Assembly (NCBI GenBank): GCA_030745835.1
Contig: JASLNU010000010.1
Span: 4,289 to 68,288 of the forward strand
Origin: Rhodospirillales bacterium
Lineage (GTDB): Bacteria > Pseudomonadota > Alphaproteobacteria > Rhodospirillales > UBA2165
Direction: 5' to 3'
DNA: 64,000 bases
Below the pieces are notes generated by a model. The model was given only the letters and a program-made list of their open reading frames with translations, was not told the DNA's origin and did not search any database. How positions within the stretch are numbered: the first letter of the stretch is position 1; every line of letters begins with the position of its first letter. This document shows, one piece after another, positions 4,768 to 49,272 of this stretch. A program made the translations under genes and the position numbers.

Positions 4768-5299
4768 AGGACAGCGCCTGGCGGCGCTCAAGGGGGCGGC
4801 GACGCGGCCCACCTCCGACCGTATCCGCGAAGCGCTGTTCAACATCCTGGCGCATGGCATCGGCCTGGAATTAGAGGGATGCGCGGTTCTAGATGCGTTC
4901 GCCGGCACCGGCGCCCTTGGATTGGAGGCTTTGTCGCGGGGCGCCGCATCGGCGCTGTTTATCGACTATTCGGAAGCGGCGCTCGATCAGGTTCGCGAAA
5001 ACGCCGAAGCGTTGAACGAAGATGCGGTGGTGGCAATGCGCGCCGATATCCGGAAGCTCGGTCCGCCGCCCGCCGGCATGGCTCCGGCCGGGCTCGTCTT
5101 CCTCGATCCGCCCTACGGCGAGGCATTGATCGGGGCGGCGCTCGGCGTGCTGGCCGGGCCGGGCTGGCTGGCGGACGGCGCCGTCCTGGTCGCCGAAACC
5201 GGCAAGTCCGAGGACATCGAGGTTCCGGAAAAATTCGTGGTCATCGATGAGCGCGGCTACGGATCGACCAACATTATGTTTCTGAGATACAGCGCCTAG
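4742..5299 (+). CDS. rsmD: 16S rRNA (guanine(966)-N(2))-methyltransferase
   Basis: MRIVGGKNKGQRL...TRPTSDRIREALFNIL and the DPPYG motif. Start at ATG 4742. Confidence 0.85.
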   Translation: MRIVGGKNKGQRLAALKGAATRPTSDRIREALFNILAHGIGLELEGCAVLDAFAGTGALGLEALSRGAASALFIDYSEAALDQVRENAEALNEDAVVAMRADIRKLGPPPAGMAPAGLVFLDPPYGEALIGAALGVLAGPGWLADGAVLVAETGKSEDIEVPEKFVVIDERGYGSTNIMFLRYSA

Positions 5300-26704: not shown

Positions 26705-27823
26705 ATGGACAGTAATCAAGACGATGGCGCCTATCTTCGCCGCAACATGCGCGGCAAGGTTTTCTGGAATCCGACAACGATTCCCGCCAGTGAGCGGGGC
26801 AAACATATCATCCGCATGGATTTGAACGAATGCCCGCATCCGCCGTCGCCGGCGGCGATCGCCGCGATGCAGGCCCATGCCGACAAGATCAACCGCTATC
26901 CCGACGGCACCTGCCCGGAAATAACCGAGCGTCTGTCGAAATTGAACGGCGTTCCGGCGGCGCAGATTATTTGGGGATCGGGCTCAACGCAGCTTTTGAA
27001 AAGCATCATGGAAGTTGTCATCGCGCCGGGTGAAAACCTGGTGTCGCCGAGCCTTCTCTGGCACCGCTTCCACGGCGTTTACGAAGTGCTCGATGCCGAT
27101 GTCACCATCGTGCCCAACCATGCCGACGCCACCATCGATGTGGGCGGGATGATCAGCGCCATCGGCAACAATACGCGTCTCGCAGTAGTCATCACGCCGA
27201 ACAATCCGACCGGTTTGATGCTCGGCGAGGATGATATCCATCGGGTATGCGCGGATACGCCGGAAAATGTGCTGCTGTTCATCGACGAGGCCTATCACGA
27301 ATTCGCGGTTCACGCCGGCGGCGTCGATGCGCTGGAAATCGTCAAGCAGCGAAAAGGGCCCTGGGTGGTCAGCCGCACATTTTCCAAGGCTTATGCGCTG
27401 GCCGGCGCGCGTCTCGGTTATGCCTATTGCTCGTCAGAGGAAATTGCCAATGCGTTGCGCATGATCACCAGCACCTTCAATATTTCGGCTTTTGCCGAAG
27501 TCGGCGCGCTGGCCGCCCTCGATGATCCCGAATACACGAAATTTATCTTGGGCAGTAATGCCACCGAACGGACGCGCATCATCGAGGGACTGAAGGCGCT
27601 GGGCTGTGCGCCGCTGCAATCGGTGACCAATTTCGTGTCCGCCGACACCGGCGTGCCGGGCGAGGAGGTGGTCCGCGATATGCGCGCCCGCGGCATACGC
27701 ATCGCGCGTCTGCACGACGCCGGTTTCGAGAACTATATCCGCATATCGATGGGCCAGCCGGATGACACCGACGCTTGTCTCGTCAGCCTTAAAGAGGTGT
27801 TGGAAAATCTGCGCGGCGGCTAG
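26705..27823 (+). CDS. Class I/II PLP aminotransferase (histidinol-phosphate aminotransferase-like)
   Basis: 372 aa. The PLP-lysine block RTFSKAYALAGARLGY is typical of HisC-like enzymes. Starts 3 nt after the ABC gene stop. Confidence 0.75.
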   Translation: MDSNQDDGAYLRRNMRGKVFWNPTTIPASERGKHIIRMDLNECPHPPSPAAIAAMQAHADKINRYPDGTCPEITERLSKLNGVPAAQIIWGSGSTQLLKSIMEVVIAPGENLVSPSLLWHRFHGVYEVLDADVTIVPNHADATIDVGGMISAIGNNTRLAVVITPNNPTGLMLGEDDIHRVCADTPENVLLFIDEAYHEFAVHAGGVDALEIVKQRKGPWVVSRTFSKAYALAGARLGYAYCSSEEIANALRMITSTFNISAFAEVGALAALDDPEYTKFILGSNATERTRIIEGLKALGCAPLQSVTNFVSADTGVPGEEVVRDMRARGIRIARLHDAGFENYIRISMGQPDDTDACLVSLKEVLENLRGG

Positions 27824-28088
27824 AGCATTTTCCGACCAAATGAAACCATTTGACCGGGATGATTTTGCCCCGTGGCGAGGAGCACTTCGCATGGCGATGC
27901 AGCGCATCGGCAAAGATGTGCGACGACGTCCACGGGTCAAAAGCACCCGGCCTCTGGTGGGTCAAATCGGCTCCCCGGGTGCGTTGCGATACTTGCCCGA
28001 TGCGAAGGCATCGCGCTGCGCACCGCGCCTACCCGGAAAACCGATTTGTTCCCATCAAATTGATTCCATTTGGTCGGAAAGTGCTCTA
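27821..28088. repeat. Structured palindromic intergenic element, copy A
   Basis: Outer inverted repeat 27821-27853 / 28056-28088. Inner hairpin stems 27854-27875 / 27930-27950 and about 27958-27979 / 28033-28055. Cores are homologous to copies B and C. Confidence 0.8.
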
Positions 28089-28119
28089 AGCCGGCATTCC
28101 GCTCCTTACCCGAAAAGGC

Positions 28120-28153
28120 AAATCCCCGCCCAGTGGGCGGGGATTTGTTTTTT
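28120..28153 (+). terminator. Rho-independent terminator
   Basis: AAATCCCCGCC (28120-28130), loop CAGTG, GGCGGGGATTT (28136-28146), then GTTTTTTG. Confidence 0.8.
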
Positions 28154-30039: not shown

Positions 30040-30126
30040 TGGTGCGGGCGGAGAGACTCGAACTCTCACTCTGTCACCAGAACGGGATTTTGAATCCCGC
30101 GCGTCTACCAGTTCCGCCACGCCCGC
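30040..30126 (-). tRNA. tRNA-Leu (anticodon CAA)
   Basis: The reverse complement folds as a cloverleaf: acceptor GCGGGCG/CGCCCGC, anticodon stem CGGGA/TCCCG with loop TTCAAAA, long variable arm, T-arm GAGAG-TTCGAGT-CTCTC, and encoded ACCA. Confidence 0.92.
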
Positions 30127-31425: not shown

Positions 31426-31983
31426 GTGAAAAACACCCTCGCCCGTCTCGGCCCGCTGCCGGGCGATCCGTCGGCGGCCGAATTGACCGAGCGCATGATT
31501 CGCGTCGATCAGGCCGGCGAATATGGCGCCAAGCGGATTTACGCCGGGCAACTTGCGGTGCTCGGCGATGGCAAGGATGGCCCCATGTTGCGCGAGATGG
31601 CGGAAACCGAGGAACGGCACCTGGCGAGATTCAATGAAATGATTGCCCAGCGTCAGATCAGGCCAACGGCGCTACAGCCGGTCTGGCATCTGGCCGGCTT
31701 CGCCCTCGGCGCCGGCAGCGCGCTGATCGGGCGCGAAGCGGCGATGGCCTGCACCGTCGCCGTCGAGGAAGTGATCGAAGAGCATTACTGGGGCCAATCG
31801 GAAATTCTGGGCGACCAAGAGGCCGAGTTGAAAACCGTGATCGAAGAGTTTCGCGCCGACGAGATTGCCCATAAGCAAAGTGCCATCGAAGCCGGGGCCG
31901 AGAAAGCGCCCGCCTATCCGCTCTTGTCGGCGGCGGTCAAAACCGGCTCGCGCCTGGCCATTTGGCTGTCCGAGCGGATCTAG
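31426..31983 (+). CDS. coq7: Demethoxyubiquinone hydroxylase (Coq7 family di-iron protein)
   Basis: Blocks RVDQAGEYGAKRIY, ETEERHL and EEVIEEHY. GTG 31426 is preceded by GAGG; the ORF track begins at ATG 31408. Confidence 0.85.
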   Translation: MKNTLARLGPLPGDPSAAELTERMIRVDQAGEYGAKRIYAGQLAVLGDGKDGPMLREMAETEERHLARFNEMIAQRQIRPTALQPVWHLAGFALGAGSALIGREAAMACTVAVEEVIEEHYWGQSEILGDQEAELKTVIEEFRADEIAHKQSAIEAGAEKAPAYPLLSAAVKTGSRLAIWLSERI

Positions 31984-32307
31984 TGGCCTGTATCATCTAT
32001 TTTGCACCCCTACGACGGCGTTGCGAGGTTTCCGGCGAGGAGCGCGCCGCGCCGTGGTGCCGATCCACCACAAGTGGTGCGCGACGATGTCCGGGAGCCT
32101 TGCAACGCCGCCCTCTGGGTCGTTTTTCCCGTCCCCTCGGGGGTCGCGGGGGCGCCCCCCGCATTTGGAGTCGGGGGGACACCCCCCGGTGGCCCCCGGG
32201 GGTGTCGGAAGGGCTTGCCGATGGGCCCGCATCGCCGGCGCCCCTCCTCCTACCGGGGAAACGGGAAAAACGATCGTAGGGGTACATTATAGATGATAAA
32301 GGCCACT
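31982..32307. repeat. Structured palindromic intergenic element, copy B (largest, with an extra G/C-rich insert)
   Basis: Outer inverted repeat 31982-32015 / 32274-32307 (34 bp, 4 mismatches). Hairpin stems 32016-32035 / 32091-32110 and 32120-32136 / 32255-32273. Cores are homologous to copies A and C. Confidence 0.8.
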
Positions 32308-46277: not shown

Positions 46278-46300
46278 AAAATCATCCCGGTCAAATGGTT
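46278..46300. repeat. Isolated fragment of the palindromic element family
   Basis: AAAATCATCCCGGTCAAATGGTT is an exact reverse complement of 27844-27866 in copy A. Confidence 0.7.
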
Positions 46301-46320
46301 CCCATCTATCCGCAACCGCG

Positions 46321-49009: not shown

Positions 49010-49272
49010 ATACCAAGGTGCAGTGATAATAACCCATAGAGACGGCATACCAAGGTTTTCGGCAAGGAGCGCGCGGCGCGGCGATGCGGGACATCGGAAG
49101 ACGTGCGCGACGCTGTCCGAAAGCCTTGGTATGCCGCCGTTCCGGTCGCCCATGCGGCCCGCCGGAGGGCGTCAGAAACGCTTGCCGATACCCCGCATCG
49201 CCGGCGCGTTCCTTCCTACCCGGCGGACCGCATGGGCGATCTCTATGGGTCATTATCACTGCACCTTGGTAT
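49010..49272. repeat. Structured palindromic intergenic element, copy C (cleanest)
   Basis: Outer stem 49010-49042 / 49240-49272 (33 bp, 1 mismatch). Hairpin stems 49043-49062 / 49117-49136 and 49146-49165 / 49219-49238. Confidence 0.85.

Follow-up and report, generated by a model that had tools for sequence, protein, structure and literature searches.

An elaborate, probable REP-doublet element with nested covarying stems and empty orthologous sites in uncultured marine alphaproteobacteria

Introduction

The biology of repetitive extragenic palindromic (REP) sequences, and of the REP doublets that form hairpins (REPINs), is known mostly from gamma-proteobacteria, and a whole REPIN typically measures ~70-110 bp. 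To our knowledge, the recognition and movement of REPINs by REP-associated tyrosine transposases (RAYTs) have so far been inferred and not shown. Here we describe a nested palindromic element, present in three complete copies (A, B and C), in a stretch of 64,000 nucleotides from a Rhodospirillales bacterium (GenBank assembly GCA_030745835.1, contig JASLNU010000010.1, positions 4,289 to 68,288 of the forward strand); this whole stretch is referred to below as the window. The cleanest copy, copy C at 49010-49272, had been singled out from the sequence alone, and the original prediction left it as either a structured RNA or a REPIN-like mobile element.

For the REP unit a length of 20-40 bp is given, with 5-13 bp in the stem and 2-20 nt in the loop (Di Nocera et al. 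2013, PMC3733652, Table 1), and CGTC REPs are recognised by a CGTC tag, an 8-9 bp stem starting with A/T, a loop of 4-5 nt and a CCA tail (PMC3733652). REP dimers that are regularly enclosed in long palindromes and never found alone have been described in the same survey (Di Nocera et al. 2013, PMC3733652). The REPs associated with RAYTs include GTAGGAGCGCGCTCGCGCGCGA of X. campestris and GTAGGAGCGCACC.GGGCGCGAC of X. axonopodis (Nunvar et al. 2010, PMC2817692). For REPINs, the arms were found to change in a compensating way, and a 'clover' fold, in which each REP is folded on itself, was proposed as the RAYT substrate (Bertels and Rainey, PMC3116915); in one SBW25 doublet the REP starts lie 71 bp apart (PMC3116915). 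On comparison with these systems, we conclude that the element probably represents an undescribed and unusually elaborate REP-doublet family of uncultured marine alphaproteobacteria and not a new structured-RNA class.

Results and discussion

Anatomy and predicted fold of copy C

The boundary of copy C was set by a recombinant contig (L021) together with the empty sites of two relatives (L074 and L075), and its stem arms were located by inverted-repeat search. The features, in order along the window, are as follows.

49010-49272: copy C, complete element of type C, termini ATACC...GGTAT, 263 bp
49010-49042: left arm of P1, the outer inverted repeat; partner 49240-49272, 33 nt, 97% complementary
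49043-49062: left arm of the P2 stem; partner 49117-49136
49063-49116: REP-like core a, forward on the + strand; covariance-model match 49053-49129 (+), 83.7 bits
49117-49136: right arm of the P2 stem
49137-49145: junction CCGTTCCGG separating both hairpins; a 3-bp mini-hairpin in the fold, with two of its three pairs covarying
49146-49165: left arm of the P3 stem; partner 49220-49239, 95% complementary
49166-49219: REP-like core b, forward on the - strand; covariance-model match 49153-49229 (-), 79 bits
49220-49239: right arm of the P3 stem
49240-49272: right arm of P1, partner of the left arm

The nested inverted repeats that had been reported for copy C, and the outer repeats of copies A and B, were thus reproduced, save that the right arm of P3 had been placed one base off. 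When its extension into the core is included, P2 spans 49043-49074/49105-49136. Core a consists of a CAAGGAG tag, a stem (CGCGCG/CGTGCG), the apical hairpin GCGATGC-GGGA-CATCGG and the tail GACGCTGT, and core b of the tag GGTAGGAAGG, a stem, the apical hairpin GCGATGC-GGGG-TATCGG and the tail GACGCCCT. The element is built of two inverted core modules with their tags outward, placing exactly one forward module on each DNA strand; each module is extended by a ~20-bp stem (P2 or P3), and the pair is clamped by the ~33-bp outer repeat P1.

On either strand, and with RNA or DNA parameters, copy C was folded into a structure in which P1 closes a three-way junction carrying two long hairpins, at -172 kcal/mol (+ strand RNA), -181 kcal/mol (- strand RNA) and -106 kcal/mol (DNA). 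These energies correspond to z = -13 to -15 against dinucleotide shuffles, none of 200 shuffles being as good, and they bear out the three-way-junction fold suggested in the original prediction. As modelled, a single strand of the element folds stably into a cloverleaf-like three-way junction, and since P2 and P3 stems are added to the features of a REP doublet, the clover is the minimum-energy fold. A protein-coding reading of the GC-rich open frames was also considered and was rejected, because 1-nt indels and covarying stems set the copies apart from one another.

The cores and the described REPs

A single covariance model, made from the left and right apical regions aligned in forward orientation, gave exactly six matches in the 64-kb window, three on the + strand and three on the - strand, with one of each in every copy (E 1e-12 to 1e-22), and the two apical regions of an element are accordingly reverse-complement paralogues, as had been recognised. 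The cores share one plan: stem1, the tag (G/C)(T/A/C)AGGAG, a covarying 7-8 bp stem, the apical hairpin GCGATGC-loop-GCATCG, a return strand, GACGCNNT and the return of stem1. The 3' tail of the core is GACGC, and this and AGGAG are conserved unpaired motifs in internal loops. Right cores are tagged GTAGGAG or GCAGGAG and left cores CTAGGAG, CAAGGAG, CCAGGAG or CGAGGAG, with AGGAG nearly invariant and AG invariant. Thus, like the GTAG REPs, the cores carry an unpaired GTAG-type tag ending an imperfect palindrome.

Core a resembles the X. campestris REP GTAGGAGCGCGCTCGCGCGCGA, and the cores as a whole are like the RAYT-associated REPs of Xanthomonas and Pseudomonas, those nearest in print being GTAGGAGCGCGCTCGCGCGCGA and GTAGGAGCGCACC.GGGCGCGAC. 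Judged by sequence, they belong to the described GTAGGAGC type of REP (PMC2817692). The original prediction could not name the family; for the cores a name can thus be given, whereas neither Rfam nor the searched literature yielded the composite element; in that literature, motif strings led only to the Xanthomonas REP (PMC2817692). At ~54-60 nt, with a loop of ~25-30 nt that holds a further conserved 5-6 bp hairpin, the cores lie outside the published REP size and loop range (PMC3733652); the length of their stem is within the published limits. The CGTC-tagged REPs were considered as an alternative assignment and rejected: loop size, tail and stem start do not fit, and the CGTC/TGTC seen is the complement of the GACG tail.

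In complete copies all cores occur as convergent +/- pairs ~100 nt apart, as in the head-to-head doublet by which REPINs are defined. This arrangement holds for six of six cores in the window and for all element-derived matches of at least 28 bits in 366 kb of loci, and no free-standing single core was met in the 64 kb of the window and these 366 kb. Lone cores occur only where a hairpin has been lost or cut off (L044a, L066, L054 and L057), and the four weakest core matches (20-23 bits) come from unrelated genomes, of soil and other origin. As to copy number, three complete copies and one remnant were found in 64 kb, all intergenic, with at least three further loci in the population implied by recombinant contigs; REPINs number tens to hundreds per genome.

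Relatives and subfamilies

Relatives were sought with one left-core pattern in species-representative genomes and JGI metagenomes. The scan gave ~25 true matches, each embedded in a complete composite element. Some 20 loci beyond the window were obtained in this way from metagenome-assembled genomes (MAGs) and metagenomes, with flanks differing from locus to locus. The named genome matches are all uncultured and mostly marine alphaproteobacteria (Denitrobaculum sp., MarineAlpha3, Rhodospirillales). TARA Oceans contigs and three NCBI MAG assemblies also contain proteins of the window, and the closest named gene relatives are 'Rhodospirillaceae/Rhodospirillales bacterium' MAGs.

The three window copies represent three subfamilies, A, B and C, in which the core modules are common and P1-P3 have diverged with their arms still complementary. 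Identity between the window copies is 47-76% in the cores, 21-42% in P1 and 14-45% in the left arm of P3. The stems had been called unrelated between copies; this holds for P1 and P3 across subfamilies, and fails for P2 of copies B and C (75% identical) and within types C and B, whose stems are kept. Among type C copies of different genomes, identity is 66-85% in each segment, the stems being no exception, and the termini ATACC...GGTAT do not vary in more than 20 copies drawn from many genomes; a type B copy from another metagenome (L042) retains the termini of its subfamily. Type A copies in the relative L075 and in contigs of the same population keep the AGAG ends and differ in the outer P1. 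The element had also been described as the opposite of a miniature inverted-repeat transposable element (MITE) in its conserved middle and variable ends; the cores are indeed shared across subfamilies, but with termini conserved within types C and B the description was overstated.

No match to copy C was obtained by blastn against 72,556 plasmids, and none to the element among viral contigs. The plasmid collection is expected to include rhizobial megaplasmids, and a rhizobial RIME/Sm megaplasmid repeat was rejected as a candidate on this lack of a match. The Rfam search that had been suggested returned no described RNA family for the element at gathering score, where only a tRNA passes in the window; when thresholds were relaxed, the element matched nothing but long miRNA-precursor hairpins and an internal ribosome entry site (IRES) model, all below threshold. 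Literature searches on RIME (Rhizobium-specific intergenic mosaic elements) and MITE gave nothing specific to the element.

Covariation and strand-specific folding

In an alignment of 11 sequences, 91% of cells were paired, against ~40% when the partners were slid. Compensatory double changes were seen in 65 of the 105 pairs, a figure reached by none of 500 shuffles, and the compensatory covariation proposed earlier is confirmed; they affect 21 of the 32 P1 pairs and 14 of the 15 pairs of the P3 helix. In the cores themselves, 20 of 25 pairs of the consensus fold covary among 38 forward cores (RNAalifold).

In the two core hairpins the constraint depends on the strand. In forward orientation, G.T outnumbers A.C by 41:4 in left cores and by 37:6 in right cores, in agreement with the earlier remark that many transitions would be G-T(U) pairs on the forward strand of the core, and for either core type 21 of 22 forward hairpins exceed their complements in stability, by ~9-10 kcal/mol. 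P1, with G.T to A.C at 11:16, is symmetric and Watson-Crick, with no strand bias. Since the two hairpins are opposed in direction, each DNA strand carries one well-formed hairpin, and since a hairpin folds better on its forward strand, it probably acts, on these models, as a single strand. Mutational strand bias was rejected as the cause of the G.T pattern, as it cannot yield opposite-strand optimisation of both hairpins; selection on the single-stranded forward hairpin can.

Empty sites, insertion and target

The orthologous intergenic comparison that had been suggested revealed presence or absence of the element at copies C and A. The relatives L074-L076 have the gene order of the window (COX genes, UbiA, Peptidase_M32, thrC, Peptidase_M16), with a thrC product 79% identical, and their M32-thrC spacer measures 73-75 nt against 361 nt in the window. 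The filled site of copy C reads GATAGGTTA[ATACC...GGTAT]AAGCGCC, and the empty sites read GATAGGGTAACCGCC and GATAGGTTAGCCTCGC. When GATAGGTTA[ATACC...GGTAT]AAGCGCCGAATTGG is aligned with the empty GATAGGGTAACCGCCAAATTGG and GATAGGTTAGCCTCGCAAATGG, the difference amounts to 263 bp plus one base. The whole 263-bp unit is what is present or absent. The site of copy A is likewise empty in L072 and L073, where the aminotransferase orthologues (81% and 71% identical) end in a stop codon followed by the same terminator. These empty sites, the unrelated contexts of the copies, the contigs broken inside them and the inverted REP-type doublets together support the REPIN-like mobile element that the original prediction had offered as one option, insertion polymorphism being a mark of REPINs.

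Contigs of the window population often end within an element, and others switch flank at its end (L021) or inside it (L062, L064, L066 and L070); it follows that this is a multi-copy repeat, with at least three further loci in the genome of the window population. The regions concerned lie at 2709-2971 in L021 and at ~2617-2900 in L062, L064, L066 and L070, of which L064, from the NCBI MAG GCA_002687515.1, has such a junction. As these contigs are recombinant or chimeric across copies, the repeats cause misassembly in published MAGs of the lineage.

At the one filled/empty site that could be compared (copy C), the target duplication is at most 1 nt, and no consistent duplication of 2 bp or more was found across ~19 type C loci. 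Insertion flanks are A/T-rich, and TA, usually as CTA, adjoins one end in 13 of 20 copies. In type C, T stands at -2 in 14 of 19 flanks and A at +2 in 11 of 18, and positions -1 and +1 agree in 11 of 18. A 3-bp TNA or a 1-bp duplication was considered on these flank statistics, which are suggestive without being decisive and are not matched by types A and B.

The stop codon of a long open reading frame overlaps the element junction in ~9-10 of 23 copies. It is rebuilt by the first base or bases of the element, as TA-A in type C and as T-AG in types A and B (the hyphen marking the junction). This bias may be explained in either of two ways: the insertion mechanism prefers T/A sites, or only such insertions survive.

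Other copies in the window and their neighbours

The remaining element-related features of the window are given below.

27821-28088: copy A, type A, termini (T)AGAGC...GCTCT(A); cores at 27865-27942 (+) and 27965-28042 (-)
31982-32307: copy B, type B, termini AGTGGCC...GGCCACT; cores at 32026-32103 (+) and 32187-32263 (-)
32135-32202: secondary insertion in copy B, ~59 nt, between the P3 left arm and core b, with CGGGGG on both flanks
46278-46320, - strand: truncated A-type left end (P1 left arm and the first 13 nt of P2), immediately following the Peptidase_M16 TAG stop

Three complete copies had been counted in the 64 kb, and this count stands; the truncated fourth and the insertion nested in copy B had been missed. 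All three complete copies lie just 3' of a gene, as had been noted. The P1 of copy A (27821-27851/28058-28088) is 87% complementary; the copy begins at the TAG stop (27821-27823) of a hisC-like aminotransferase, and its end is followed after 24 nt by the intrinsic terminator of the same gene (28113-28153). Copy B, with a P1 (31982-32015/32274-32307) that is 88% complementary, sits between the COQ7 stop and an EamA gene, the AG of the TAG at 31981-31983 being supplied by the element. Copy C lies between the Peptidase_M32 stop (69 nt away) and the thrC start (29 nt away), both genes being on the - strand. From these positions, all three copies must be transcribed.

The remnant at 46278-46320 contains a 23-nt exact match to copy A (AACCATTTGACCGGGATGATTTT) and resembles the alternative A-type P1 of L062-L070. 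Beyond it lies a gap of ~600 nt that is absent in L074 and L075, where other genes adjoin M16. The secondary unit in copy B is GC-rich and comprises the hairpins CGGGGGG-ACA-CCCCCCG and GCGGGGG-CG-CCCCCGC within a short outer repeat. It is absent from the B-type copy L042, and the same ~59-nt unit occupies the corresponding site in the C-type copy L004 (~5223-5285), in opposite orientation and in another genome. It has the look of another nested palindromic mobile unit in miniature.

Variant forms were also met among the relatives. Two copies lie on one short contig in both L008 and L044. The contig L044 has a 169-bp form lacking the P3 hairpin (32-200) across an rlmH-like gene from a full copy (691-953), and these two copies share the same P1 and have different P2 stems. 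A rearranged head-to-tail dimer occupies 1246-1662 of L008, and L066 has at ~2617-2790 a single-hairpin form in which the right core half is the exact complement of the left half. Insertions or duplications of 15 nt occur in L030 and L028.

Some effects on the neighbouring genes can be envisaged. The called ATG of EamA (32293) falls within the right arm of P1 in copy B, which ends at 32307; either EamA acquired this start codon with the insertion, or translation truly begins at a site further downstream. A sigma-70-like TTGGTA-16 nt-TATTAT at 49053-49026 (-), made by P2 and P1, is aimed at thrC (start codon 48980), and the type C consensus retains TTGGNA-N16-CATTAT. One such site was found against 0.2 in shuffles, as a consensus match only, and on that match the element may supply or replace a thrC promoter.

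Two further repeats or structured features of the window lie apart from the element. A tRNA gene with a long variable arm (30043-30126, - strand; Rfam tRNA, 58 bits) stands ~1.9 kb from copies A and B with no evident link to them. A 95-nt direct repeat (24273-24367/26101-26195, 72% identity) lies inside adjacent ABC_membrane/ABC_tran genes upstream of the aminotransferase, and is ordinary paralogy of this pair.

Interpretation and alternatives

Taken together, the element is probably, if not firmly, a REP doublet (REPIN) in kind, and as such a mobile DNA repeat that is non-autonomous. Its forward hairpins, as single-stranded DNA, would be bound by a transposase whose gene lies elsewhere in the genome; by analogy with the GTAGGAGC-type REPs, this enzyme may be a RAYT-type HUH tyrosine transposase. 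Complementarity of the arms would be kept by folding selection, by hairpin-templated correction or by both. Insertion takes place at T/A-containing sites, often stop codons, with the A or AG of the element restoring the stop, and the inserted copies are co-transcribed with their neighbours and may secondarily affect the mRNA.

Several observations weigh against this interpretation. The cognate RAYT gene of REPINs is usually present once and bordered by copies of those REPs. No RAYT or other transposase was detected by phmmer with approximate Y1 queries in 532 kb, none scoring below E = 1, although this is a weak test. Where a classical REP has 20-40 nt and a loop of 2-20 nt, the cores have ~54-60 nt and a second hairpin; the left cores carry CTAG, CAAG or CGAG and not GTAG; and classical REPINs are without clamps of the P1/P2/P3 type. 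Finally, an RNA element able to work in either insertion orientation would account for the forward-strand bias just as well.

A more specific version of the REP-doublet interpretation, which we put forward only tentatively, is a REPIN lineage with a permanently 'locked clover', in which each REP stands on a long stem of its own, an outer stem clamps the pair and every strand shows one forward hairpin; it would home to and rebuild stop codons, and may be mobilised by an agent different from a classical RAYT or co-opted as an orientation-independent 3' untranslated region (UTR) RNA module. If so, the stop codon would be a near-neutral, orientation-independent landing site, and the mobilising machinery would read only the REP hairpin and not the arms.

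It is rather doubtful that the element is primarily a functional structured RNA, that is, a cis-acting 3'-UTR or intercistronic stabiliser, or a processing or protein-binding site, the spread of which is secondary. Such a role would account for the strong covariation, for stems that tolerate G-U and not A-C, for the conserved unpaired AGGAG and GACGC, for the location of the window copies in necessarily transcribed regions (copy A from stop to terminator, copy C 29 nt before the thrC start) and for the fact that RNA of either strand contains one forward hairpin. However, it is difficult to reconcile with presence and absence at orthologous sites where the neighbouring genes are otherwise intact, with gene contexts that are unrelated and in which both orientations occur, and with the toleration of truncated and rearranged copies, and no Rfam family is matched. 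Moreover, the hairpins are optimised on opposite strands, so that no transcript has both in good form, and P1 is a near-perfect 33-bp Watson-Crick duplex lacking a G-U bias. The primary RNA role that the original prediction had entertained is thus not upheld. A secondary role at the RNA level, as in mRNA stabilisation, a processing or protein-binding site or a thrC-facing promoter, is compatible with the data, without explaining the insertion polymorphism.

An ordinary MITE, moved by a DDE transposase (e.g. IS630/Tc1-like, with a TA target) that binds P1 as terminal inverted repeats (TIRs) and carries the hairpins as passengers, is unlikely. The invariance of ATACC...GGTAT in type C, the P1 shared by the two copies of L044, and the A/T-rich flanks with their frequent adjoining TA are what such a MITE would show. 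A TA-duplicating IS630-like MITE, as suggested by the A-TA-CC...GG-TA-T of type C, is nevertheless ruled out by the empty sites: a filled/empty difference of 263 bp plus at most 1 nt does not fit a 2-bp TA duplication with an ATAT target, nor was a consistent duplication seen in ~19 loci. Only five terminal bases are invariant in type C, the rest of P1 covarying freely, and types A, B and C differ in their termini and share their internal cores, the reverse of what is predicted for TIRs bound by a transposase. No parent insertion sequence with ATACCAAGG... ends was met in the sequences examined, nor any match among the plasmids.

Lastly, that the ~54-nt cores alone are mobile and enter pre-existing palindromes, or invert and duplicate their target, the stems being host sequence, is highly improbable: the window cores are conserved while P1 and P3 look unrelated, and a smaller palindromic unit did insert at the same site in copy B and L004, but what is missing at the empty sites is the entire 263 bp with its stems, types C and B keep their stems and termini from genome to genome, and no core occurs without stems, nor any full-length stem match in the window without cores, the only partial match being the remnant at 46278-46320. 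The earlier suggestion that the element targets or generates palindromes is accordingly not supported.

The REP-doublet interpretation has several consequences. The family amounts to a natural experiment, in which REP hairpins are conserved over three subfamilies and many uncultured marine genomes and the stems are free to change if they stay paired, and the proposed 'clover' substrate is in this family the stable fold. Insertion into a stop codon with its regeneration would offer a tidy explanation for repeats piling up immediately 3' of genes. In practical terms, the elements break and chimerise metagenome assemblies of the lineage, and they could pass for structured RNAs in covariation screens.

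Comparison with known systems

Several known families share some of these traits. Like Correia elements (CREE) and IS630-type MITEs, the element is small, palindromic, intergenic and co-transcribed, with TA/ATA-like ends next to TA; unlike them, it has no TA duplication at the comparable site, and its termini are not conserved across subfamilies. With bacterial interspersed mosaic elements (BIMEs) and RIMEs it shares an intergenic mosaic of palindromic modules, often in the 3' UTR, and nested small palindromic insertions, whereas its architecture is fixed and no sequence match was found in the plasmid collection.

A closer likeness is to the GTAG-15 dimers of A. variabilis and the CGTC-1 dimers of H. 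neapolitanus (PMC3733652), which also lie head-to-head inside a long palindrome and are commonly heterodimers. In contrast to those palindromes, which have one outer layer of ~20-27 bp per arm and short REPs, the element has three stem layers and larger cores, and its hosts are marine Rhodospirillales-like alphaproteobacteria.

The closest system is that of the REPs and REPINs themselves. As in these, two inverted REP modules form one replicative unit, which is extragenic and in which the modules are conserved and the arms covary; the tag is of GTAG type, the core is near GTAGGAGCGCGC...GCGCGA(C), and the 'clover' fold is the one proposed there as the transposase substrate. Unlike a REPIN, however, the element measures 263 bp and has an extra apical hairpin in each REP, each on its own 20-bp stem. 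Its left module carries CTAG/CAAG instead of GTAG, and a cognate RAYT is here only a candidate. Its 33-bp outer clamp makes the clover its minimum-energy fold and not a minor alternative, and its insertion often regenerates a stop codon.

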